Source of the DNA: a virus
Taxonomy: Duplodnaviria > Caudoviricetes
IMG/VR virus record: IMGVR_UViG_3300042291_000296
Coordinates: 1-62,265 of that record
Strand: one strand, 5' to 3'
Length of the DNA: 62,265 nucleotides
A model generated the notes under the pieces. It saw only the letters and a list, made by a program, of their open reading frames with translations. It ran no database searches and was not told the DNA's origin. A program made the position numbers and the translations under genes. Shown here in pieces: positions 5,752 to 44,851 of this stretch (the stretch's first letter is position 1; each line of letters starts with the position of its first letter).

Positions 5752-6012
5752 ATGGCATATCAAAAATTACAAGTATCAAGAGTTAGTGCAGTAGTAAATA
5801 GCGACACAGTTGACATTCCATATGTTGGAGATCCGTCATCTGTTTGGCCGTGTATATTATACTCTGGAACTGGTGGAGACATAAGAGTTATGACCGCAGG
5901 TGGTGATGACGTATTGTTTGTGGGTGTACCTGCTGGGTCATTTATGCCCGTACAGGTTATAAGAGTATTTGCTACAGATACAGTTCCTACTGACATTCTG
6001 GCTTGTTGGTAA
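5752..6012 (+). CDS. Small beta-rich virion (spike-base-like) protein
   Basis: LYSGTGGDIRV...FVGVPAGSFMPVQVIRVFATDT pattern; start at MAYQKLQ. Confidence 0.6.
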   Translation: MAYQKLQVSRVSAVVNSDTVDIPYVGDPSSVWPCILYSGTGGDIRVMTAGGDDVLFVGVPAGSFMPVQVIRVFATDTVPTDILACW

Positions 6013-6013
6013 G

Positions 6014-6343
6014 ATGTCTATATCTGCCTCCATATCAGCTGGCGTTGGATCAATTCCAATTGTTGAGAACTCAAGAGTACCTGTTAATACTGATCGTCCT
6101 GTATTGTCAGGTGATTTTTTAGTAGGTACTACAGCTACGTGCAGCGATGGTACTTGGACAAACGATCCAACTGAGTTTAGTTACCAATGGTACAGAGACT
6201 CACGAGAGATACCTCTTGCTTTTATGTCTACGTACTTATTAATAAATTTAGACAGAGGAAAGACCATTAGTTGTCTTGTAACAGCTACTAATGATTTTGG
6301 TAGTGGAGATCAGTTTAGCGATGAAGTTTTTATAACTGAATAA
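6014..6343 (+). CDS. Ig-like domain virion protein
   Basis: PVLSG..VGTTATCSDGTW...SYQWYRD...DRGKTISCLVTATN, an Ig-like beta-sandwich signature. Confidence 0.7.
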   Translation: MSISASISAGVGSIPIVENSRVPVNTDRPVLSGDFLVGTTATCSDGTWTNDPTEFSYQWYRDSREIPLAFMSTYLLINLDRGKTISCLVTATNDFGSGDQFSDEVFITE

Positions 6344-6683: not shown

Positions 6684-8179
6684 TGCAGGTAGTCGATGCG
6701 AATGGCAACATGTATGGTGACGACAATTTAGAGATAAATGACGTAAACGGTAAGCCTAAGACTACGGGTGGAGGAGGAGGTGGGGGTGTTACGTCAGTAG
6801 GCACAACTGGATTAATATCAGGCGGGCCAATTACAACTACAGGAACCATTAGTACATCTATGAATACCAATAAACTTGTTGGTAGAAGCACAGCAGGGCC
6901 AGGTATAATGGAGGAGATAACTGTTGGTAGTGGACTAACGTTATCATCTGGTACATTAAATAATACCGCAACACCTACACCACTTGGGTATTATGGAGCA
7001 TGGCAAGATGATATAACTCAAACTGCTGCTGCTAGTAATACAGGATATGCAATGATTTATAGAGTTACTGATATTACTCCTAGTGGTATATCAATTGTTA
7101 ATAATGGCAGTGGAAATCCTACAAGAATAACATTCGCAAATACAGGTATATATAACATTCAATTCTCTTCACAATTTCAAAACCTAGCTAATTCTCCACA
7201 AGATGTAACTATATGGTTAAGAAAAAATGGTACTGATGTAGTAGGTAGTTCAGGAGTTGTAGGAATGGAGGCTAGAAAAAATCCAGGAGATCCATATCAC
7301 ACAATAGTAGGTTGGAATTATGTATTAAGTGTAGTTGCAGGAGAGTACTATGAATTAGTATGGAGTACAACAGACCATATACACGTAGAAATGCACTCTT
7401 ATGCAGCAGGTTCTCCTCCTCCATCAGCAGCATCAGTTATTTTAACTGTTACACAACAGAGTGGTATAATGGCAGGTACGGGCATTACTGCACTTAATAG
7501 TTTAACTGGAGCTGCTCAAACATTTGGTAACGACACGAATGTTACTATGGTATCATCTGGAACTACTCATGCAATTACATGGGCTGGTACACTAGCAGAT
7601 AGCAGGATAGCTAGTGCATCAACTTGGAATGCTAAACAAAATGCTTTAGTTAGTGGCACAAACATTAAAACAATTAACTCTACCTCATTATTAGGTAGTG
7701 GTGATATTGCTATATCATCTAGTCCTTATACTACAGTAGGCAATGCTACAGGAACATTAGTAAACAACTCGACCACCAATACTATTAGTGCGTCTATCCT
7801 TATTCCTGCTAATACCTTAGTACCTACAAAAGTACTACAGCTAAGGTCTCAAGTTCGTAAGATAGGAGGCGCAGGTACAACTAACGTAAGATTCTACATT
7901 AACACAATTAATAGTTTAGTGGGTGCTACTCAGATAGCTCAAGGTTTAAATATGACAGGCTCAGGGCTTATGCAAAGAGTAGGAAGAGATATCTATATCA
8001 CTAATAACAGCATTCAATGCTACTCACCTTTTAACGGTCTTGCAACCGACTTAAATAGTGGCCCTATGACTAACGTAGCTTATGTACTTGCTACACCTTA
8101 CTACCTTATAGCAGCAATACAATGCTCTACTCTATTAGACGATGGTACAATAACAAGGCTCAATCTAATGACCTACTAA
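6683..8179 (+). CDS. Tail/head fiber protein
   Basis: G/T/S-rich; GVTSVGT..LISGGPITTTGTIS repeat, C1q/BclA-like TGIYNIQFSSQ domain, KQNALVSGTNIKTINSTSLLGSGDI fiber motif. Confidence 0.8.
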   Translation: MQVVDANGNMYGDDNLEINDVNGKPKTTGGGGGGGVTSVGTTGLISGGPITTTGTISTSMNTNKLVGRSTAGPGIMEEITVGSGLTLSSGTLNNTATPTPLGYYGAWQDDITQTAAASNTGYAMIYRVTDITPSGISIVNNGSGNPTRITFANTGIYNIQFSSQFQNLANSPQDVTIWLRKNGTDVVGSSGVVGMEARKNPGDPYHTIVGWNYVLSVVAGEYYELVWSTTDHIHVEMHSYAAGSPPPSAASVILTVTQQSGIMAGTGITALNSLTGAAQTFGNDTNVTMVSSGTTHAITWAGTLADSRIASASTWNAKQNALVSGTNIKTINSTSLLGSGDIAISSSPYTTVGNATGTLVNNSTTNTISASILIPANTLVPTKVLQLRSQVRKIGGAGTTNVRFYINTINSLVGATQIAQGLNMTGSGLMQRVGRDIYITNNSIQCYSPFNGLATDLNSGPMTNVAYVLATPYYLIAAIQCSTLLDDGTITRLNLMTY

Positions 8180-33661: not shown

Positions 33662-36600
33662 ATGGCAGAGATTGATGATGAAAATATTGTTAATGAGGAC
33701 AATCAATATTCTAGGGTTGATAATACAACTACCGAACCACCATTTAAATTTTCTTTAGATCAATATCTTAGCGATCTAACTGTTGATCCAATAACAACTG
33801 TTCCAGAAGTAACGGTAACGCCAAACGATGGGTTGTCTTCATACATGAGGACGTACTTAAATAACATTCAATCGGGTGCTAAAAAGGCAATGTCAAATGT
33901 AGACTTTAGTTATTTAGGCGGTGTTTTTGAGAAAGGATATGAAGGTGCACTTCGTGTCGTAGATCAAAATATTCAGGCGTTAAATATTTCTGAGGAAGAC
34001 AGAGCTAATATATATAAAGATCAAAAAAAAATTGATCAATATGTACAAGTGTATAATAACTGGAGAGACAGTGGGGGTACTGGTGAATTTGTTTTGTTTA
34101 ATCCAGATTTAGATCCTGAAACAGAATTTTCGGCAGAAAAACTTGGAACACAATTAAGCAAAAGAGAAAAAAAGTTGACTCAAGAAGAAATGAGGAAGCA
34201 AAACGAAACGGTAGTAAGAAGTAATAAGATAACGTCTGCTAATTTAAACATAAAACCAAAACCACTACCAAATAAAATAGCAACAACATTTGATGAAAAT
34301 ACGGGAGGATATATAACTGAATATCAACCAATCGAAAATAAAACTCTGGAACAGGAGATATCAACAGAAGTTATTCCTTCTTATATAGCTCAGACTAAAT
34401 TTTACGAAAAATTAGAAGAGAATGCTACTGCTAAAAGCATTATAAGTTTTAACAGGATTATGGAAGATAAAAGAAATCCTGCCTTAGGGTTTTTTGAAAA
34501 TGTTGTGCCCAAAGAAGTACTTGAATCTTCCCTAAAACAGATACAAAACAACTATACTGCTGATGGATATCTTGCCTACACAAAAGCTAATAATCTTCCT
34601 GCTGAACTAGACGTAAATACGTTAAACAATCATTTTAAAGGCACTGATATCTATTTTGATATGGATAATGGGGAGCTTAGGGTAAACTATGGAACCGCTA
34701 CAGAGAGAGCACTTCAAGAAAGTCCAGCAGATAGTTGGCTTATGCAGGCATATGAATATTTTTCTTATGCAGAAAGTGTAGGCCAGAATTCTCTAGTTTT
34801 TGATCCATCAAATCCAGAAGAATTATCTCAATGGATTCAAACGACATTGCTCACAGCAGAAGAGGAAAAAAGTATTAACACTGGCGACGTTGAAAAGAAT
34901 AGAAATAATTACTATAAACTACAACTTAGTCATCCTGAAAAATTTCAATCATCGCAGATTGACACCAAAGCAATTAATAATTATGTTGTTAAACAAAAAG
35001 AACAAGTAATTTACATAGCAAAACGGTTAGAATCAGATAAAAATGAATTGGATAAGTTAAAAGGAACTGAAACAATAATTAAATATGATAATCTTGCAAA
35101 AGAATTCACAACATTAAACGATAAGTTAACTGGAATAAAAAAAAATTTAGAGGGTAAAAAAAATCCGTCAGAAAAAGATATTAATGACTATAATTTACAA
35201 GTCGAAAATCTTAACAAAATTTATCAATCCATAGAACAATTAAAGAAGACTGACGAATTTTCTTATTATTCTGATTTAAACAAATCATTTGTCAGAAATT
35301 CAGAAGATCTGGTAAAGCTTAATGAAAATGCAAAAACGATTGAAGAACAAAATAAAGTAGTAGTTGCTAAAAAATACATAGAAAAAGAAGCACAGGGATC
35401 ATTTGTTGGAAATATAGCATCAGGACTTTATACAGGAATGATGGAGAAGGCAGAGAGTTCGGTTGTTTTAGCACTAGATGCAGCTGTAGGGACTGGGCTT
35501 ATTAAGGTTGACGATCTTTTCGGTCCTTCATACGCTGTGGATTTAGATAAAAGTGATACACAGAAGTACAATGAGTTTAAGAGGGAACTATCTAATGTTT
35601 TTGACAATGAAATAATAAATCGATATACTGAAGCAGCTTTTGGTACTACTGAGGAGTACGCTCAATCTGATAAAAGAAATGACTTTGAAAAATCTGCTCG
35701 AATGGTATCGGAATCATTAGGCGCAATGGCGGGTGGAGGTGGAAATAAATACCTTACTCTTTTTGGATTTTTCTCTCAGTCATACAATGCGATAAATAAA
35801 GAAATGAGGGGGGAGGAATTTGATGATTTAACTTCCTTTGAAAAAAATATATTGGCTGTACCAGTCAGTATAGCGGTGGGATATTTAGATAAACTTGGTG
35901 CAAAGATCTCACTTGGGGATCCTTTAGTTGAAAAATTATTACTTAAAACACTTGCAAAAGCTGTAACAGAAATCCCTAAGGATGCCACCATAGAATATGT
36001 AGAGTCAGTTGTGAAAAAAAGTATTGCCAACCAAATAGCACTAGGTACACTTAAGATTGTGGGAAGCTCATTTGCTGAAGGATTTACTGAGGGGGGTCAG
36101 GAGGTAGCAACTATGAGTGCAAAAGCTATATTTAATGAATACCACAAAAAAGATTTATTTAATTTACCAGATATAACTACCGAAAAGGGAAGGCAAGAGG
36201 CTAAGGATATTGTACTCGAAAATCTTTATTATGGAACGATTGGAGGGGGTATAATGTCAAGTGGAGAGCAATCTGTATCAGCCCTAAAAAATGGTTTTGA
36301 TAATTCAAAAGCAGACGCTAAATTTGATTTGTTGTACAATACAATAACTGACCCAGAATTAATTTTAACAGCTAAGAATGCTATAAAACTAGATTTAGCT
36401 AATAAAAAAATAACTAGAGAAACTGCCGAACAACGAATGGAGAGCGTGAACAGTGTATACTCTTTGTTTAAATCTATTCCAAAAGAATTGTCTACTGAAC
36501 AAAAAAAAGAGGCATTTAATTTAATAAGAGAAAAGCAAACAATAGAAAAAGAAATAGAAGGAAAGGATCCTGCATTAGTAAACGCTCAAAAAACCAGAGT

Positions 36601-39600
36601 CTCTGAAATAAATGAATCACTTAAAACAATAAGCAACAATGCCGCTAAAGAAACCACAAACAAACAGCAAGCAGGCACAGCAGAAGGCGGTGTCAGCGAA
36701 TATCAAGGAACTAGTGAAGGACAACCAGAAGGCGGGCAAGTCGAAGGGGGACAACGGAAAGCCACGGTCAATGAAACAGATAGTCGCAATAGCACTATCC
36801 CAAGCAAAGTACAAGAAGAAGTAACTACCTACAGAGCTGAAGAACAAGCGGAGCTTCTTAAGGTTATACCTAAAATAGAAAATTACAAGGTAAATGGTGA
36901 GATAGATAAAACTCTCATGCCAAAGACTGTACTAGATAAGTACAATAAGGTTTACAACAAGTATGACAATTTAATCAGTCCACTATTAGAGACCACAGGT
37001 GAAATCACAATCAACAAGCCTGCCATTGCTACCAATACAACAGCTGAGGTTAGCCGAGTAAAGTCATTGAAAGAAGTTGATGAGGATGGGGCTACATTTA
37101 ATATTGACGGGGTTAAGTACGAAGGTCCTGGATTGGTTGTACCTGTAATCAGCATGAACACAACAATGGAGGAGATTACTCCAGAGATGATATCTAACTT
37201 TGTTGAAGAGCACTCTGATAAGATCGGAGATTCTGAGACGGTAAAGGTTGGTATCTATAAGTTCCCTAATAGTAATCAGGTGTCTATAGACCTAAACATA
37301 CTTGCACCTGAATCATCTAGAGGTCAAGCTATTGAGTTTGGTCGATTGTCAGGACAGGAGTCTCTGTTTGACATGAGCACATTTGAAAATGTAAAGACTG
37401 GAGCTACAGGAGAAAATCCAATGCAGTTTACACCAAAGCAGTTTAAAGAAATTGCTAAGGCGTTAAAGGAGGGCAGGATGCCAAATGTTTTTGACAGTAA
37501 AGCAACTACAGCTAAAAAAATAGATTACAAGCAAAACTTAGTTACCCCTGAGAACTCAAGAGAAGTAGCATCAAAACAAGATACACCGTTAAAACAAAAA
37601 ATAGCTAAGTCAGCAGCTATGATAATGAAGTCTTTGCCTGGTGTTAAGATCTATCTTCATAACAATCAGTCAGAGATGCACCAAGCCATAGCAGATACAA
37701 CTGGTAGAAATGTAGATGATATATCTGATGAGGTAGGAAATGCAGCAGGAGCTCAAATTAAGAAAGAGATTCATGTAAACATGGATACTGCTAAGGAAAC
37801 TACAATACTACATGAGGCATTCCACGAGGCAATACTAAGATCTGGCAAGTCTTTTCAGACTATAACTGACTTTGCTAATGGTCTTAAAAATATTATATCA
37901 GACAAAGACGTTAAAGCTAAGTTAGACAAGTTTATCTCTATGTATAATGAATCAGATAGGGCAGAAGAGTTTCTATCTGAGCTTGGAGCTATTATGTCCG
38001 AAGCAGAGACTGAGCTAACAACCACAAAGTTTCAAAAGTTTTTAAATCTAATCAATAGAATAGCTAGAAGCTTAGGCCTACCTGTAATAATAAAGTCTAG
38101 TGCAACTGCACAAGAGGCTGTTGACTTTATTAATTATATGTCTAAAAGTCTTAGGACTGGTAAGGCGATTGAGGGAGATTATAGAGGTGAAGGTAAAATT
38201 AAAAGGCAGGACATAGAATTAAATGCTGAAATAAAAAAATCTCTTTCTGAGCAAGATTCTATTAAAATAGCTAAAGAAGTAGTAGATAAAACTATTAAAG
38301 GAAAGGCTATACCTACATGGGTACAAAAAAAGACTTCCAATAAAGTTAAATTTGTTTCGTTTTCAGGAGAAATTAATCAAAAAAATGTAAAGGAAAATGC
38401 TCCTTCAAGTTATAATAGTACAGCTGCTAAATTTTCAAATTATAATACTTTTAATATTAATGTAAAACAAGAATTAAATAATTCTTTAGCTGGAGCTAGT
38501 AAAGAAAGTATAAATAAAGCTCTAGAACATAATAAAAATAAATTATTACCTAAAATAAATTCATTATTAAAAGAAATTGTAAAAATTAAAAGTAATAAAA
38601 AATTAACTAAAGAAGAGAAATTAAGTAAGATAAGTTTAAGAAATGAAGCTATTGTTAATATTAAAAAAATAGCAAAAATGAAAGATCTTAATGATCAATT
38701 AAATGCTGTTTTAAATATTGAACATAAATCAACTAAAGATTCATTGTATAATAGTATGTTTTATGATTTATCAACTAATTTAAAAAGATTAAAAGGACTA
38801 GAACTTGAAAATAAATCTGAAGGTATTTATAAAAAAGCAAAAGATATTGTTAAGTCAAATCTTTTATCTGTATATAATTCTGTTTCACCTAGAATTAGAC
38901 AAATAAGTAAATTATGGTATGATGGAGCTAATTTAATAGCTCAAGATATGGCTAATAACTATGAGTTAACTAATGAGCAGGCAGCTGCAATAATAGCAAC
39001 TCAATCCCCTCAGATGCCGTGGTTTGACAACTTACATCTTGCTGATGTAATTATGAATTTAATGCATTCAGAAAGTAATAGTATATTTACTAAAGAATTA
39101 TTTGATTATTATGTATCTAAATCTGAAGGGTATGCAGAACAGAAAAAATATATTCCTACTCTTTTAAAAGCTATAGGAACTCCTTTGTCTAAATTATCAG
39201 ATTTAGATGCTGCTATTTTTATTAGAGCTTATTATGACACTAAATTAAGTAGAAAAGCACCTATTAGAATACCAACTGGAACAGCTATATCTGAGGATCA
39301 AAAAGGAGATTCATCATTTAGTGGTTATAGTGTAATAGCTAAGGGTATATCTATATTTAGAGATGGGAGTATTGAAAATATATCTAATCAATTAGGAGAA
39401 GCAAATAAGGTTAGAAACTTTTACATGAATATTGCAGATCCATCTGACAAGAGAGCTGTAACTATAGATACTCATGCTATGGCAATTGCATTGTTTAAGC
39501 CATTAGCATCAAATGATTATGAAGTAAATTTTGATGCTGCTACATTTGCTTTTTATGCTGATGCATATAGAGAGTTAGCTGATGAATTAGGAATTGAAGC

Positions 39601-42600
39601 TAGAGCATTACAATCTATAACATGGGAAGCAGCAAGAGCTATTTTCCCTGCTAAAGAAAAAGCTAAATCTGGATACAAAGAAAAGATCTCTAACATATGG
39701 GATGAATTAGTTAGTGGAAATAAATCATTATATAAAGTTCAAGAAGAAATATTTAATCAATCACAAGACCCTAATATAACAGAGTGGTCTGAATACATAA
39801 ACATATTAAAAGATGAAAAAGCAAGAACAAATGTCAGTGGAAGAATTGTTGGATTGGAAGGGACTAGAGCCACCAATAACATGGGAGCAGTATCAGGAAC
39901 TAGTATCGGAGAATCCAAATCTTCAGGAAGAACTGGAGTATCTAGCAGAGGAGCCAAAATAAAACTCCAAAAGACCACACAAGAAACAAGAATGGACAAG
40001 GAGTCTGAGGATGTATTCAAGAAGTCATTAGATAGTGGAACAGATTGGGCCACATCTACTCAGGATGCACTAGACTACATACAGAAGTCAAATTGGTATC
40101 AAGATGCAACCGATATAGAGAGAGAACAGAAGGTAAGAGACTTTAAAGAATCTAAAAAACAGAAACTAAAGAAGGCACCATCTGTAGCTAAGATAATGGG
40201 CACGCCTAAACCAAAGATGGTTACAGTTAACGAGGCGGCTGCATTTAAAGATCAACTAAGACTAGAGGCCAAGGCAGCTAGAGAGGCTAGGGGTGACCTA
40301 AACTTTAAAAGAAAGTCGTTGTCTGATGCCATCAAGTCAATGGCTAAACTTGGAAAATTAAAGGTGAGCCAAGCGACCACAATCATCACAAGAGTTAGTA
40401 AAGTAAATCTTGATAGTTCAGTACAGGTTGACAGACTTATTGACTACGCAGCCAAAGTATTCGAGAGGGCAAACTATCAAGATAGATTAAATGATGCATT
40501 CTCTTACAAAAGGGCTATCAGAAAGTTATTAAAGACAAACAATCAGGCACAGGTTGTTGGCATGGCCAATGAGTTTACAAAGCTAGACCCATCTATGGTT
40601 GAAAATATAGAGGAATATATAGATATTGCTGAGAAAGTTAAGAAAGCAGTAGCTCCATCAAGAGCTAAAACATTTACTATTGACAACGATAATTACTTTG
40701 ACATGGTATTAAAACAAGCTACAAACATAGAGGCGGTGTCAAAATTTGTAAAAGATGAACTTGAAAAACAAGATCAACAATTAAAGGATGAGCTCTTGGC
40801 TACTAATAATGAGCTATTAGAATCTGGGTTTATATCTCGTGACATGACGGCAAAACAAATACAAGGAGTTATTGATTCAATGAAAAAGGATCCAGCATAT
40901 AAAATGGATAGCAAAGAAAAGGAAGGTTACATGATGACTTACCTATCACAAAGATTTAATTCATTGGCAGAAGTAATTTCAGACATTATAAAAACAAATC
41001 AAAATCCAGTTACTGGAGAAAGGGTAGCTATAGATCAAAAAGATGTAGCTATAATGTCAGATTTATTGAAGGTTGATCTGTCAGAAATGGGTGTCAGAGA
41101 TGCTCTTTTTATTGTTGAGGCAATGGACAACTTTATAACTAATGGAATCACTAGCAAGCTAGAGGGAGCCTTGTCTGCATACAAGGGGCAAATGGGTCTT
41201 AAAGAAGAGATAAAGTCGGGTAAGGTTGCTAGACCATTAAGGCTTTACTTTACTAAAAAAGCAGGCAGGGAGTTTGCAATTGAGTTTACACCTCTTCCAT
41301 TAATGATAGAGAGGATGTTTAATGGAGTTAAAAGTGGAATAAGTATAATGAAGTCTATGGGACTTTCTATTGTTATTAATGGTGTTAATAAGGCAAATTA
41401 TCTACACAACAAGATAATAGATGAGTACTACAACAAATTTATAAGGAAGAGTAAAACATTTCATACCCCTGAAAATGTATACGAAAGGGGTATGCTGGCC
41501 TTCTTGAAAAGAAATGTTACTGGTTCATTAGAAGAAATGAAGGCAGAGACAAATAGAAGAGTTAAAATGATAACACAAAGTATTACTACTTTAAAGAATA
41601 AAGGAGATAAATCACAAAAAGCTATGGCAGAAATTTATCAAAAAGTATTTGATAAGTTAGACGTAAGCACTGGAGACATAGACGTGATTGAATCAAGGGC
41701 ATCAAAAGAAAATAAAGATGCTGTTAACTGGTGGATAAACCAGTGGTCTAAACACTATAAAGATCTTTCTGATGTAAGTTTGTCGGTGTATAACTATGAC
41801 CTAGGAAGTGACCTTAACTATACCCCAGATAAATATAAGTTAATAAAAACTGAAGAGTTTGATCAAAAATTAATAGAAAGAAACTCATCGTTCTTGATTA
41901 GCATGGATAATTATACAGACAAAGAAAAAACAGGGGTTTTGATGCAATCAACCAGACCTAATGCTATGGAAGAAGGTAGATACCTGAGCTTTGATTTTGA
42001 TGCAAATAACTCTAACTCACTTAAGGGTGCACTAGTAGATATAAATACAGCGGCTGGAATAAGACAGATAGATGGATTTTTAAATTCAAAATTATTGGAT
42101 AAGCTGATACCAAGTACTGAAGATAGAGATGCATTAGTAATTAGAGTAAATAGATATATAAGAAGGTCTAAGGGTAAGATATTTATGCCTAAAGATTTGT
42201 ATAAGGATGTAGATTCGGTTATCAATTTTGCTGCGAGACTTGGTGTTGGTAAGGCACTAGGTGGTGTGCTACAGTCGGTAAAACAAACAATACCTATTGC
42301 AATAAGTACAGCTATAATGACAGGAAGGTTTAATATACCTAGCGTTAGTTTCAATGAGTGGCTAAACAAGACTGGCATGCCAATAGCAAATCGGGGTTTA
42401 GATTCACTGTCTGCTATAGAATCTGTAGACAGAAGACTGGACGCTAAGGCCACAGGGTTTAATAAACCATTAAAGTGGGTTCAAAAAACACAACAGCTAT
42501 ATCTAAAGTGGTTCTTATCAAAGCCAGATGTAATGATTGCAAGGATGGCATTCCAGTCATACTACTTACAGTATATGAAAGAGAGTTCTATTGACTGGGC

Positions 42601-44002
42601 TAATCATACCCCAAATCAAGATGCATTAAACTATGCTGAGGCTATGGTTGGTAGACAACAAAATATAAATGATCCAATGCTTGGTGGAGAATTCTTAACT
42701 GCTGAAGATAGTATGAAGAGGATATCTAAAAAGGTATTACTTCCATTTGCTTCTTTTGGATTAAATCAAAAGGCTAGATTAAATTCAGATTTAATTAACA
42801 TGGCTTCTAAGACAACTAGCGTTGAAGATAAAAAGATTGCATTTAAATCAGCTACTGCTACACTAGCAGAGATGGTTGCGTACAGAGCTATAGCTGTTGG
42901 AATTAGTTATGGGTTCTATAAGTCCGCTGAAGCTATAATTAAAAATTATGTGGGTGACGATGAAGATGATGATGACGATGAGGAAAGAGACAAGAAGTGG
43001 TTTTTAAGTTCTGTAAAATTCCCCCTTAAGTCAATGATAAACGACCTTATATCACCTCTTCCACTAACAGATGAATATGTTACAATGGGAGCCGACTATA
43101 TTCTATCTCAATATACTGGATACACTGAAGCTGAATTAGATGAACTAGTTAAAAATGAAAACGAGATAAGAGGATTAAAGGGTCTAGATCCATTGGAAGG
43201 TCGGCAGCTAAAGAAGTTTAGAGAAGAAGAAAAGAAAGAAAGCTTATATCAACTTGCAGGTAAATATGAAAGTAGTGCGTTTGGAATGGGATCAATTTTT
43301 TATGATGCAGCTAAAAAGTTTTATTATGAATATCAGTTAGCTATGACTGGGGAATTTAAGGATGAATATAGAGGAAATGTAACCACTAAAAAGATAAGAC
43401 CAGTGGAGCAAGAAGTAATTAAAAATAGTCTTTACTTCTCTGCTTTGTATCTGTTAGAAATACTTCCAAAAGAAGCAGATCAAATGACCACAAAAGTTGT
43501 TAACATGATTAAAAAGAATGCCATGTCTGAGCCACAATATGAAAAATATGAAGGCTTTAAAAAAGAATACAAACGTGAGCCTAGTTATTTAGAGATGGCT
43601 TTAATTAGATCTGAAAAAAAACAAGATTACATAGAAACTGAACTTAATTTTATTAAGGATGAGGGTGGATTAAGCTTAGTTCAATCTAAAGAATATGTTA
43701 AAATATTTAATTTAATAAACGAAGTTACACCTGATGATCTTTCTAAAATAAAGGAAGGTCAAACAGCTGATCAAATTATTAAATCTTTGAAAAAAGAATA
43801 CAAAGAACAAATTTCTGAGGTAGAAACTGAAACAGAAGGAGACGGAGGAGAGGTATTGCAACCAACAAAAAAAGAAGTAGTGGTCGAAGAGATATTAAAA
43901 CCAACTGAAAAAAAGAAAGAAGTCGAAGAGGTATTACAACCAACTAAAATAAATGAAGAAATAGAAGAGGTACTTCAGCCGATAAAACCGCCTAGTCTAT
44001 AA
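33662..44002 (+). CDS. Giant (3446 aa) polyvalent ejection protein with zincin, HhH-like and putative SAM-lyase-like domains
   Basis: Last gene of the virion module; HEAFH (37811) plus EEF; WY...SPQ..W..N...KVRNFY.NI...VTIDTH...LQSITW; GATFN domain at 37085-37395. Confidence 0.75.
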   Translation: MAEIDDENIVNEDNQYSRVDNTTTEPPFKFSLDQYLSDLTVDPITTVPEVTVTPNDGLSSYMRTYLNNIQSGAKKAMSNVDFSYLGGVFEKGYEGALRVVDQNIQALNISEEDRANIYKDQKKIDQYVQVYNNWRDSGGTGEFVLFNPDLDPETEFSAEKLGTQLSKREKKLTQEEMRKQNETVVRSNKITSANLNIKPKPLPNKIATTFDENTGGYITEYQPIENKTLEQEISTEVIPSYIAQTKFYEKLEENATAKSIISFNRIMEDKRNPALGFFENVVPKEVLESSLKQIQNNYTADGYLAYTKANNLPAELDVNTLNNHFKGTDIYFDMDNGELRVNYGTATERALQESPADSWLMQAYEYFSYAESVGQNSLVFDPSNPEELSQWIQTTLLTAEEEKSINTGDVEKNRNNYYKLQLSHPEKFQSSQIDTKAINNYVVKQKEQVIYIAKRLESDKNELDKLKGTETIIKYDNLAKEFTTLNDKLTGIKKNLEGKKNPSEKDINDYNLQVENLNKIYQSIEQLKKTDEFSYYSDLNKSFVRNSEDLVKLNENAKTIEEQNKVVVAKKYIEKEAQGSFVGNIASGLYTGMMEKAESSVVLALDAAVGTGLIKVDDLFGPSYAVDLDKSDTQKYNEFKRELSNVFDNEIINRYTEAAFGTTEEYAQSDKRNDFEKSARMVSESLGAMAGGGGNKYLTLFGFFSQSYNAINKEMRGEEFDDLTSFEKNILAVPVSIAVGYLDKLGAKISLGDPLVEKLLLKTLAKAVTEIPKDATIEYVESVVKKSIANQIALGTLKIVGSSFAEGFTEGGQEVATMSAKAIFNEYHKKDLFNLPDITTEKGRQEAKDIVLENLYYGTIGGGIMSSGEQSVSALKNGFDNSKADAKFDLLYNTITDPELILTAKNAIKLDLANKKITRETAEQRMESVNSVYSLFKSIPKELSTEQKKEAFNLIREKQTIEKEIEGKDPALVNAQKTRVSEINESLKTISNNAAKETTNKQQAGTAEGGVSEYQGTSEGQPEGGQVEGGQRKATVNETDSRNSTIPSKVQEEVTTYRAEEQAELLKVIPKIENYKVNGEIDKTLMPKTVLDKYNKVYNKYDNLISPLLETTGEITINKPAIATNTTAEVSRVKSLKEVDEDGATFNIDGVKYEGPGLVVPVISMNTTMEEITPEMISNFVEEHSDKIGDSETVKVGIYKFPNSNQVSIDLNILAPESSRGQAIEFGRLSGQESLFDMSTFENVKTGATGENPMQFTPKQFKEIAKALKEGRMPNVFDSKATTAKKIDYKQNLVTPENSREVASKQDTPLKQKIAKSAAMIMKSLPGVKIYLHNNQSEMHQAIADTTGRNVDDISDEVGNAAGAQIKKEIHVNMDTAKETTILHEAFHEAILRSGKSFQTITDFANGLKNIISDKDVKAKLDKFISMYNESDRAEEFLSELGAIMSEAETELTTTKFQKFLNLINRIARSLGLPVIIKSSATAQEAVDFINYMSKSLRTGKAIEGDYRGEGKIKRQDIELNAEIKKSLSEQDSIKIAKEVVDKTIKGKAIPTWVQKKTSNKVKFVSFSGEINQKNVKENAPSSYNSTAAKFSNYNTFNINVKQELNNSLAGASKESINKALEHNKNKLLPKINSLLKEIVKIKSNKKLTKEEKLSKISLRNEAIVNIKKIAKMKDLNDQLNAVLNIEHKSTKDSLYNSMFYDLSTNLKRLKGLELENKSEGIYKKAKDIVKSNLLSVYNSVSPRIRQISKLWYDGANLIAQDMANNYELTNEQAAAIIATQSPQMPWFDNLHLADVIMNLMHSESNSIFTKELFDYYVSKSEGYAEQKKYIPTLLKAIGTPLSKLSDLDAAIFIRAYYDTKLSRKAPIRIPTGTAISEDQKGDSSFSGYSVIAKGISIFRDGSIENISNQLGEANKVRNFYMNIADPSDKRAVTIDTHAMAIALFKPLASNDYEVNFDAATFAFYADAYRELADELGIEARALQSITWEAARAIFPAKEKAKSGYKEKISNIWDELVSGNKSLYKVQEEIFNQSQDPNITEWSEYINILKDEKARTNVSGRIVGLEGTRATNNMGAVSGTSIGESKSSGRTGVSSRGAKIKLQKTTQETRMDKESEDVFKKSLDSGTDWATSTQDALDYIQKSNWYQDATDIEREQKVRDFKESKKQKLKKAPSVAKIMGTPKPKMVTVNEAAAFKDQLRLEAKAAREARGDLNFKRKSLSDAIKSMAKLGKLKVSQATTIITRVSKVNLDSSVQVDRLIDYAAKVFERANYQDRLNDAFSYKRAIRKLLKTNNQAQVVGMANEFTKLDPSMVENIEEYIDIAEKVKKAVAPSRAKTFTIDNDNYFDMVLKQATNIEAVSKFVKDELEKQDQQLKDELLATNNELLESGFISRDMTAKQIQGVIDSMKKDPAYKMDSKEKEGYMMTYLSQRFNSLAEVISDIIKTNQNPVTGERVAIDQKDVAIMSDLLKVDLSEMGVRDALFIVEAMDNFITNGITSKLEGALSAYKGQMGLKEEIKSGKVARPLRLYFTKKAGREFAIEFTPLPLMIERMFNGVKSGISIMKSMGLSIVINGVNKANYLHNKIIDEYYNKFIRKSKTFHTPENVYERGMLAFLKRNVTGSLEEMKAETNRRVKMITQSITTLKNKGDKSQKAMAEIYQKVFDKLDVSTGDIDVIESRASKENKDAVNWWINQWSKHYKDLSDVSLSVYNYDLGSDLNYTPDKYKLIKTEEFDQKLIERNSSFLISMDNYTDKEKTGVLMQSTRPNAMEEGRYLSFDFDANNSNSLKGALVDINTAAGIRQIDGFLNSKLLDKLIPSTEDRDALVIRVNRYIRRSKGKIFMPKDLYKDVDSVINFAARLGVGKALGGVLQSVKQTIPIAISTAIMTGRFNIPSVSFNEWLNKTGMPIANRGLDSLSAIESVDRRLDAKATGFNKPLKWVQKTQQLYLKWFLSKPDVMIARMAFQSYYLQYMKESSIDWANHTPNQDALNYAEAMVGRQQNINDPMLGGEFLTAEDSMKRISKKVLLPFASFGLNQKARLNSDLINMASKTTSVEDKKIAFKSATATLAEMVAYRAIAVGISYGFYKSAEAIIKNYVGDDEDDDDDEERDKKWFLSSVKFPLKSMINDLISPLPLTDEYVTMGADYILSQYTGYTEAELDELVKNENEIRGLKGLDPLEGRQLKKFREEEKKESLYQLAGKYESSAFGMGSIFYDAAKKFYYEYQLAMTGEFKDEYRGNVTTKKIRPVEQEVIKNSLYFSALYLLEILPKEADQMTTKVVNMIKKNAMSEPQYEKYEGFKKEYKREPSYLEMALIRSEKKQDYIETELNFIKDEGGLSLVQSKEYVKIFNLINEVTPDDLSKIKEGQTADQIIKSLKKEYKEQISEVETETEGDGGEVLQPTKKEVVVEEILKPTEKKKEVEEVLQPTKINEEIEEVLQPIKPPSL
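36639..36824 (+). CDS. Nested +1-frame small basic protein (MPLKK...SANIKEL...KQIVAIALSQA)
   Basis: Matches a recalled widespread phage small-protein pattern; the host frame here is a low-complexity linker. Confidence 0.7.
   Translation: MPLKKPQTNSKQAQQKAVSANIKELVKDNQKAGKSKGDNGKPRSMKQIVAIALSQAKYKKK
39813..39962 (+). CDS. Nested +1-frame small acidic protein (49 aa)
   Basis: Translated by hand: MKKQEQMSVEELLDWKGLEPPITWEQYQELVSENPNLQEELEYLAEEPK; A-rich leader; host frame is a G/S/R linker. Confidence 0.55.
   Translation: MKKQEQMSVEELLDWKGLEPPITWEQYQELVSENPNLQEELEYLAEEPK
43846..43985 (+). repeat. Four EE(V/I)L(Q/K)P(T/I) peptide repeats at the giant protein C-terminus
   Basis: EVLQPT, EEILKPT, EEVLQPT, EEVLQPI. 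Confidence 0.8.
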
Positions 44003-44212: not shown

Positions 44213-44851
44213 ATGGCATACTTAAATTCAAACATTCCTACCATAACTTGTCTTATAAGAAACGAGTTCTTATTTAATAATGAACAGGGTCAAGGTGAGC
44301 ACACATTGGCTGACGTGCATTCAGTTGCATCTATACAAAAAAGAGTCCCATTGTTTGAAGCATTTTTAGAGAATGGGGTTAATTGGACTAGAAGACCTAT
44401 AAACGCATTTTGTTGGAAAAAAGACGCTGAGATTTTGCCACTTACAGAACACATCTACTGGGATTGTTTTTCTTCTTATATAGACGTGCAGGTAAGAGAA
44501 AGAATGTTTGGGTTACGGGCAGATCTAATCTCTATAACAAAAGTAAAAAGACAGGGTGTATATATGTTTACCCTTGATTGGTCACATGAAAATAGAAATA
44601 TGTTAGATACAAATTTTTCTGAAACACCAGAGCATAAGTGTGGTCACGTATTTAAAATGGATAATGGTAATTACTTTATCTATCCTAATAACAGGATCAT
44701 ATGGATAGATAAAGCATGGACATATAATCGTATATCAGAAAACCCAGGATATAAAATTGACATGAATATATACTCAGTGGAAAATGATAACCAATATGAA
44801 ACTGATTATAGTTATATTACAGAATTTACTGAAAACAAAAACAATGGCTGA
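44213..44851 (+). CDS. Conserved phage hypothetical protein
   Basis: YLNSNIP, WDCFS, YMFTLDW, EHKCGHV and YPNNRIIW motifs; function unknown. Confidence 0.75.
   Translation: MAYLNSNIPTITCLIRNEFLFNNEQGQGEHTLADVHSVASIQKRVPLFEAFLENGVNWTRRPINAFCWKKDAEILPLTEHIYWDCFSSYIDVQVRERMFGLRADLISITKVKRQGVYMFTLDWSHENRNMLDTNFSETPEHKCGHVFKMDNGNYFIYPNNRIIWIDKAWTYNRISENPGYKIDMNIYSVENDNQYETDYSYITEFTENKNNG

Follow-up and report, generated by a model that had tools for sequence, protein, structure and literature searches.

Is a small open reading frame (ORF) that lies wholly inside a giant phage gene, in another frame, a gene in its own right, and if so, how did the two come to share their DNA? The locus that raises this question is found in the viral record IMGVR_UViG_3300042291_000296, the genome of an uncultured lake phage. 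The record is complete and was analysed as a whole, and "the window" below refers to all of its 62,265 bases. A sequence-only reading, made without database searches, had singled out the ORF at 36639-36824, in the +1 frame of a giant ORF, as a real nested gene through which the giant ORF had probably grown by reading in its own frame. It suggested a profile search and a frame-specific comparison of substitutions as checks, and held that a lack of standalone homologues, together with stops in the +1 frame of close relatives, would speak against the proposal. Our comparisons with relatives favour the same view. With a probability of roughly 80%, we read 36639..36824 as a real protein-coding gene, independently initiated, that was engulfed by a growing virion gene.

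The nested peptide and its protein family

Translation of the ORF is identical to the 61-aa peptide quoted in the sequence-only reading, and the frame relation is +1 to the giant ORF, since (36639-33662) mod 3 = 1. The ORF covers residues 993-1055 of the giant protein, and a six-frame scan of the genome found no further copy of the family besides it. The nested peptide (P0001) matches the phrog_2423 profile over its full length (E 3.1e-4, residues 1-61 on profile positions 1-42 of 52), and relatives linked to it by direct search match the same profile with E values of 1.6e-12 (P0013), 2e-6 (P0022), and 4.4e-19 (P0085). In a six-frame search the Pfam family DUF6496 matched 36666-36830, a stretch running 6 bases beyond the stop codon, with 25.4 bits, and P0003, which is 97% identical to the nested peptide, carries a precomputed PF20106.5 label. 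By its phrog_2423 match, which spans the whole peptide, we assign the nested ORF to the phrog_2423 / DUF6496-like family.

A search of 5.8 billion proteins gave 20 small homologues of 37-80 aa with 53-97% identity. Among the 19 that could be aligned, the MPL start stands at residue 1 or after a short leader in 17, NI.EL is present in all, and KQI.AIA is present in all save for single substitutions in three sequences; residues M1, L3, N21, I22, E24, L25, R43, Q47, A50, I51, and A52 are invariant. The nested peptide itself has the hallmark motifs, namely the N-terminal Met-Pro-Leu-(Lys), NI.EL in helix 1, and KQI.AIA(L/I)S in helix 2. A profile built from the 19 homologues retrieved 808 cluster representatives at E <= 1e-3, mostly of 40-90 aa with the domain beginning at residue 1, and a tblastn search with one family member found 132 cultured-phage records, including 77 from Acinetobacter, 17 from Caulobacter, and 13 from Pseudomonas phages. 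The widespread family of free-standing small phage genes named in the sequence-only reading thus exists, and the profile search that it had suggested found standalone homologues in abundance. Other searches were less productive: the tblastn searches of cultured phages with P0001 and with P0022 gave nothing useful, NCBIfam had no match, and the best that BFVD offered were weak matches (E >= 0.12) to further uncharacterised small proteins of phages.

The small protein has a mass of 6.7 kDa and is very basic, with an isoelectric point (pI) of 10.5 and 16 Lys and Arg residues against 3 Asp and Glu. An AlphaFold2 model based on the 19-sequence alignment places helices at residues 11-29 and 45-55 with a mean predicted local distance difference test score (pLDDT) of 86, and the protein is accordingly predicted to fold as a helical hairpin. 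It resembles phrog_2423 / DUF6496 proteins in its N-terminal MPLKK, its NI.EL and KQI.AIALS helices, its size, and its basic character. Compared with the phrog_2423 consensus, the clade of the window has a longer basic loop (DNKKSGK.KG.NGKPRS). Typical family members are free-standing genes or in-frame terminal modules, whereas the copy in the window lies wholly inside a gene read in another frame; this is a difference in gene arrangement and not in the protein.

Two of the collected loci point to a different genetic code. In L081 (6001-6123) and L159 (1175-1297) the small gene contains two in-frame TGA codons at positions where the family has a conserved Gly (MPL-G-K and GAN-G-K). When TGA is read as sense, the number of residues in open frames of at least 150 aa rises from 881 to 4765 in L081 and from 0 to 843 in L159. 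These two contigs probably use TGA for Gly (table 25), as do phages of Gracilibacteria / Absconditabacteria-like hosts.

Conservation of the nested arrangement

With the small-protein profile we gathered 80 viral contigs and 80 metagenome contigs. In 26 of the viral and 40 of the metagenome loci a larger ORF, with a length between 756 and more than 3100 codons, encloses the small one, and the frame relation of the window recurs without exception. Of the 40 nested metagenome loci, at least 8 are contigs already present in the viral collection. Including the window, the set comprises 67 nested loci, with 54 distinct small-ORF DNA sequences and 50 distinct peptides. All 67 have the ATG and an uninterrupted small frame, so that the stops in relatives envisaged by the sequence-only reading did not appear, and in 65 an in-frame stop lies 1-8 codons upstream of the ATG.

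The giant proteins of these loci are homologous. Over the 120 codons on each side of the overlap their mean pairwise identity is ~30%, against 67-71% for the small protein. One ORF lies inside another, in a different frame, and the arrangement is conserved in relatives, as expected of an internal overlapping gene pair. The sequence of the window is unchanged over the nested ORF in independent lake samples.

The relatives of the giant gene were recovered solely via the small-protein profile. A blastn search of cultured phages with 2.5 kb around the site gave no match, and a scan of viral contigs with 1000 aa of the giant protein confirmed no relative.

A separate observation concerns L104 and L105, whose small-ORF peptides are identical and whose locus lengths are one base apart. 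The giant ORF of L105 stops after 1836 codons and that of L104 continues beyond 2233, a difference suggesting that a frameshift or an assembly error lies beyond the nested gene, on its downstream side.

Selection on the two frames

Nucleotide diversity in the overlap is 0.258, 0.205, and 0.395 at the first, second, and third codon positions of the small frame. Diversity thus tracks the codon positions of the small frame, and the third position of the giant's frame is the least variable. We estimated the ratio of nonsynonymous to synonymous differences per site (pN/pS) by the Nei-Gojobori method and obtained 0.39-0.40 for the small frame and 1.37-1.38 for the giant's frame. For the 10 closest sequences the values are 0.26 and 1.31, respectively, and the giant-frame pS is 0.09 in the overlap versus 0.43-0.47 in the flanks. 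When all six frames were compared, the small frame had the lowest pN/pS (0.30).

The same signal is seen along the gene. Over 3 kb of aligned sequence, identity at the third positions of the giant's frame peaks at 0.92-0.94 on 36701-36829, coinciding with the ORF; it is 0.36-0.6 over most of the remainder and 0.55-0.77 in the conserved domain just downstream. These are strong indications, though not formal tests, that the small frame is under purifying selection and that the giant's frame has no amino-acid constraint in the overlap. The frame-specific comparison suggested beforehand therefore gives a purifying signature in the small frame and none in the giant's. At the level of sequence, the proposal of a real nested gene is supported by homology, by the intact frame in 67 of 67 loci, and by purifying selection on the small frame.

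The giant's frame in the overlap

What the giant gene requires of the shared DNA can be seen by comparing nested with free-standing copies. The giant's frame has no stop over the overlap in any of the 67 nested loci. In the 15 free-standing AT-rich loci the equivalent frame always contains stops, between 2 and 8 of them, versus none in the 27 nested copies compared. The difference is found at one kind of position. T occupies the third position of small-frame codons in 85/336 and 130/468 cases (25-28%) in free copies; in nested copies it was found in 0/635 cases where it would create a stop in the other frame and in 24/971 elsewhere. A T at this position is the first base of a codon of the giant, and its avoidance therefore keeps stops, aromatic residues, and Cys out of the giant's reading. 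Codons beginning with T (aromatic, Cys, Leu, Ser, or stop) are almost absent from the giant's frame in the overlap, and an acidic stretch rich in E, G, Q, and T results.

In the window, this stretch has 9 Glu, 9 Gly, 7 Thr, and 7 Gln among 62 residues and a pI of 4.6, and its hydrophobic fraction is 0.11 versus 0.31 for the whole giant protein. An AlphaFold2 model of giant residues 851-1200, made with 20 aligned relatives, gives residues 996-1049 a pLDDT of 25-37 and no secondary structure, and the flanking segments are modelled as helical with a pLDDT of 75-87. The earlier description of a featureless E/G/Q/T linker at a domain boundary holds in both composition and predicted structure.

Selection has left its mark on both frames, on the small frame as a pN/pS of 0.30-0.40 and on the giant's frame as the exclusion of stops and T-initial codons. 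We infer that selection on the giant's frame in the overlap acts solely on its staying open and hydrophilic. Taken with the models, the sequence data indicate that both frames are used, one for a folded small protein and the other for a flexible linker. For the giant protein, these 186 bases would supply a disordered acidic linker that connects two folded segments.

Start region and initiation

The A-rich leader noticed earlier is there: 12 of the 20 bases at -20 to -1 are A. This fraction (0.60) compares with 0.48 ± 0.14 for the gene starts of the window and 0.39 for the 220 internal ATGs of the giant gene, and it places the nested start in the top 7% of those ATGs. The in-frame TAA of the leader lies two codons before the nested ATG. 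For the segment from -30 to +20 the predicted folding free energy (dG) is -1.2 kcal/mol, whereas windows of the giant gene average -4.9. The leaders of the 27 loci examined are all A-rich and predicted to be unstructured, with the -30 to +20 segment almost unfolded (0 to -2.5 versus means of -4.8 to -6.4 kcal/mol; median percentile 0.04).

In general the gene starts of the window are without Shine-Dalgarno sequences, their leaders are A/T-rich, and TAnnTTTG-like motifs stand ahead of several, a combination that we take to suggest a Bacteroidota host. TAnnTTTG is not significantly enriched in the window (88 matches versus 71.7 ± 8.6 expected), and the nearest match lies 313 bases upstream of the nested gene. 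No promoter was seen nearby, and the small protein would thus be translated from the long late mRNA. Independent initiation is suggested by the conservation of the Met, by the stop that closely precedes it, and by an N-terminus that is the same as in free-standing genes. In the proposed mechanism, a ribosome would start independently at the nested ATG on this long mRNA and would do so without a Shine-Dalgarno sequence.

Split, intermediate, and fused loci

Other loci in the collection suggest how the arrangement may have arisen. In seven of them (L036, L121, L125, L126, L132, L136, and L140) three abutting genes are found in the order upstream large gene, small gene, and downstream large gene. 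The upstream gene has 1046-1383 codons, with the copy of L136 truncated by the end of the contig; the small gene is free, begins ~30 bases further on, and is in the +1 frame relative to the upstream gene in all seven loci, as calculated from the coordinates. The downstream gene has 1179-1267 codons and starts within a few bases of the stop of the small gene; in L036 its first listed TTG start overlaps the last 35 bases of the small gene, and in L125 the copy runs off the contig. The upstream protein of L036 matches giant residues 675-990 and 1021-1122, and its downstream protein matches residues 2218-3087. The seven loci are closely related and therefore count as one or two observations.

Two loci, L025 and L116, are intermediate. 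Their upstream gene reads through the whole small ORF and stops ~65 codons further on, and it is followed by separate genes of 165 and 948 codons. In L033 and L059 the giants are shorter, of ~1930 codons, and the nested gene lies directly before the conserved C-terminal part.

A simple order of events would connect these forms. A large upstream virion gene would lose its stop and extend across an older small gene; the extended gene would at first end shortly after the small gene and would later fuse with downstream modules. We infer from the sequences compared that the small gene is the older and the giant's reading of the overlap the newer, which is the reverse of classical overprinting. The earlier suggestion that the giant ORF grew by reading through is the most parsimonious account of the free-standing family, the seven split loci, and the two intermediate loci, and the direction that it assumes for the change is tentative.

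Outside the split loci, the genes flanking the free-standing copies in L021, L027, L028, and L034 gave one weak match (E 2e-5) to the phage of the window. These flanks share almost nothing with it and are thus uninformative on the local history. The domain that follows the linker was also found elsewhere in giant genes: a second copy of it (giant aa ~1052-1124) is present in L012 at 5968-6180 and in L014 at 6894-7067, which makes it a duplicating module.

Evidence against and alternative explanations

A number of results weigh against the reading of 36639..36824 as a nested gene engulfed by its neighbour. The openness of the frame, which had been considered as evidence, was rejected as such. 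The +1 frame of the giant gene has 326 stop-to-stop segments, two of them of at least 63 codons, and 42% of 1000 codon shuffles also give a stretch of at least 63 codons, so that openness is not significant; being insufficient alone, it leaves the case to rest on homology and comparison. Homology is itself close to threshold in one respect, since the nested peptide scores 23.2 bits (E 9.3e-5) against DUF6496 (PF20106), for which the gathering cut-off is 24 bits. The fold search of the PDB with the small-protein model gave nothing below E = 3.3, and the sequence-profile search of the PDB gave a single match at E = 2.5. The members of phrog_2423 / DUF6496 are uncharacterised small phage and bacterial proteins, and our literature search found no paper naming DUF6496. 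All nested examples come from uncultured phages, and among cultured phages the closest relative that we examined, an elemo phage of Flavobacterium whose giant homologue has 3694 aa, has no match to the family profile, an empty answer that is weak in itself. Overlapping frames do not give independent pN/pS values, and common descent links the sequences; the second lowest ratio (0.46) belongs to the antisense frame whose third positions coincide with those of the small frame. Regarding expression, no internal promoter for the nested gene was found, sigma-70-like sites being at the level of shuffled sequence. RNA libraries yielded a single signal, a 183-nt contig from a 96% relative that spans 36623-36800 and could reflect carry-over of DNA; so little material does not establish transcription, and we rejected it as proof.

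The history is also less simple than the order of events given above. A tree of the C-terminal part contains one split locus, on a long branch, and 12 nested ones, separated by one change, so that gain and loss of the fusion are not distinguishable. The first part of the post-linker domain (RAEEQ...YNKYD..ISPLLE) lies inside the upstream large gene of L036 and occurs twice in L012 and L014. In L036 the small gene comes after this domain and not before it, opposite to the order in the window, and the history is therefore not a single simple fusion. A short-loop variant of the small protein is common to split and nested loci; together with the order in L036 it makes more than one transition, or exchange of modules, likely.

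Four other explanations of the locus have been weighed, and we consider all of them improbable to differing degrees. A +1 shift near the start of the ORF would yield a truncated giant of ~1050 aa with a C-terminal DUF6496-like domain, and the small frame would be conserved for that product. Such recoding is improbable, although P0011, a 74-aa protein from one 2048-base contig, begins in the giant's frame and passes into the small one, and although the module is also C-terminal in the longer proteins P0023, P0025, and P0034. P0011 is best explained by a one-base difference in one contig, which may be an assembly error or a truncated variant. In a frameshift product the second frame would be without a conserved start of its own; here ATG and MPL are found in 67/67 nested copies, as in free-standing genes, and the in-frame stop just upstream leaves hardly any space in which a shift could occur and still include the entire domain. 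No shared slippery run was seen upstream by eye, no formal scan having been made. We regard it as very unlikely that the locus is a silent relic, in which DNA of the small gene was captured as linker material and the small frame is no longer expressed. In its favour, genes of this size often contain an equally long open +1 stretch by chance. A relic would be expected to decay, yet the frame is intact in 54 distinct sequences from giants that have diverged to ~30% identity, and the substitutions follow the codon periodicity of the small frame with a pN/pS of 0.3-0.4.

The suggestion that the giant ORF is not read through the overlap at all, and that the locus consists of three true genes with a main frame that is open incidentally, is just as hard to credit. 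Split loci with exactly such a layout exist, and a pN/pS above 1 shows the main frame to be without amino-acid constraint here. An incidentally open frame does not explain why stops are lacking from the main frame of every nested locus when all the free-standing AT-rich loci have them, nor why T-initial codons are almost absent from it. In the window, no stop of the main frame immediately precedes the overlap, and what this frame encodes there has the look of a linker joining two segments of moderate model confidence. Least probable of all is that the constraint falls on a nucleic-acid element (RNA or DNA) or on the 76-aa antisense ORF of the minus strand at 36617..36847. Most nested loci have this antisense frame open, and its pN/pS is low. 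A low ratio is expected from the third positions it shares with the small frame, and the ratio is above that of the sense frame; the T-poor sense strand removes antisense stops, of which the ungapped blocks of 27 sequences contain 2 in all. The protein family has free-standing members in the sense frame only. The reading that we prefer remains that of an old small gene, independently translated, inside a giant gene that has grown over it.

Possible function of the small protein

Cultured phages provide some hints as to what the family does. In Clostridium phage CB452P1 the family gene lies directly upstream of the capsid/scaffold gene, and in Enterobacter phage phiEap-2 it lies between the head morphogenesis and major capsid genes. 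In Pseudomonas phage TC6, a podovirus of the Zobellviridae, it follows genes for a 1554-aa protein, a large "hemagglutinin", and an endolysin. In Acinetobacter phages of the genus Obolenskvirus the module is the in-frame N-terminus of the head maturation protease. The Acinetobacter phages HZY2308 (L082, 1932-3290) and P919 (L087, 2501-3838) have the module as the N-terminus of an annotated head maturation / prohead core protease.

Altogether, 97 longer proteins have the module at one end. Pfam searches with seven of these fused forms found solely DUF6496, below its cut-off, and DUF5661. When the neighbours of ten free-standing copies were annotated with PHROG, one amidase/endolysin was the sole usable result, and an Atlas search with the C-terminal part of P0085 led to viral clusters without names. 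For this part of P0085 a "crAss cargo protein" lead was dropped, its score of 0.85 being at a level often reached by chance.

The occurrence of the module in morphogenesis regions of cultured phages favours a role in the head or in virion assembly. That the nested gene encodes a small basic head or virion-assembly protein is a tentative suggestion by analogy, and it is the weakest step of our interpretation. The small protein may enter the procapsid or act with the giant, putatively packaged protein, and nesting would tie its synthesis to the mRNA of the giant late gene. A further reading, which we think less likely than not, is that the locus represents a conserved dual-coding module of "reverse overprinting", in which an ancient free-standing small gene was engulfed stepwise, its synonymous codons have since been shaped for a stop-free, hydrophilic, disordered linker, and the small basic protein is tied functionally to the giant, putatively packaged protein, for example by co-assembly in the procapsid. 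Such a tie would explain the survival of the arrangement down to ~30% identity.

The giant gene and its surroundings

The features of the locus are listed in Table 1. Genes ahead of the giant ORF match virion structural families, and the giant ORF closes the block. The only family match of the giant protein is to DUF7178 / phrog_3842, at ~aa 1892-1993; in addition, residues 1297-1500 are similar to the giant "structural protein" of Flavobacterium elemo phages.

Table 1. Features of the nested locus, in positions of the window
Feature	Positions	Strand	Description
Nested small gene	36639..36824	+	61 codons + TAA; phrog_2423 / DUF6496-like family member
Host (giant) gene	33662..44002	+	3446-aa ORF, end of virion structural module
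Dual-coding segment in the giant's frame	36638..36826	+	giant aa 993-1055, acidic E/G/Q/T linker, predicted disordered
Leader of the nested gene	36609..36638	+	A-rich, without Shine-Dalgarno, predicted unstructured; in-frame TAA 36630-36632
Conserved folded giant domain directly after the linker	36830..37500	+	aa identity ~0.7-0.87 among close relatives

A HEAFHE sequence, which fits the HExxH motif, is found in the middle of the giant protein (window 37811-37828, aa 1384-1389). It might belong to a zincin-like peptidase module, such as polyvalent virion proteins are described to have; no profile match backs this. The giant gene contains a further long +1-frame ORF, at 34800-35009 (+), of 69 codons with a TTG start, in a region where no relative aligned. 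The gene directly after the giant ORF, at 44213-44851 (+), matches phrog_3704 (E 3e-49), annotated as ferredoxin, and is of an auxiliary-metabolism type.

Comparison with known systems

Internal gene overlaps are classical in phages, and lambda Rz1, which lies within Rz, is one of them. To our knowledge, standard gene callers discard genes that are fully enclosed by another gene of the same strand, and conserved proteins such as the nested one can consequently go uncalled in phage genomes. Gene E of phiX174, within gene D, is an embedded +1-frame phage gene described in a review (PMC8227390). As in the E/D and Rz1/Rz pairs, the window has a whole small gene in the +1 frame inside a larger phage gene, presumably with internal initiation from the same mRNA. 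In the classical overlaps the embedded gene is regarded as new, whereas here it belongs to an old and widespread family and the reading of the host is presumably derived; the host gene is also at least 10 times longer. The work of Willis and Masel, as summarised in a section of the same review (PMC8227390), indicates that the +2-shifted class of de novo frames favours high intrinsic disorder. In line with this trend, the presumably younger frame, that of the giant, is +2 relative to the older one and is a disordered low-complexity stretch. Unlike de novo genes, this young frame is a connecting segment of an existing gene that was growing.

The protease fusion of Obolenskvirus is similar to the window in that a family module is joined physically to the gene of a procapsid-internal protein. 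That fusion is in frame and makes one polypeptide, whereas the two proteins of the window would be separate and share their DNA alone. The host gene can also be compared with the giant polyvalent proteins that phages package in their virions (Iyer et al. 2017, PMC5512222). It resembles these proteins in being a multi-kilobase ORF among late virion genes and in having variable middle modules between conserved N- and C-terminal parts, with the HExxH at aa 1384. No search identified a polyvalent-protein domain in it, and the likeness is one of size and context only. The portions of PMC5512222 covered make no mention of nested genes, and a limited literature search found no account of such an arrangement.

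The nested gene is one more example of a known phenomenon, embedded +1-frame phage genes being classical. The locus would point to internal initiation without a Shine-Dalgarno sequence in phages that probably infect Bacteroidota. The comparison of free with nested copies, with T at 25-28% versus 0-2% of third positions, provides a clean measure of the cost of hosting a second frame. What differs from the known cases is the reversed polarity, with an old embedded gene and a young host frame; unusual too are how large the host gene is, how deeply the arrangement is conserved, and that split, intermediate, and fused loci exist alongside one another. The case would invert the usual polarity of overprinting and offers a testable route by which giant multi-module virion proteins may grow across their neighbours.

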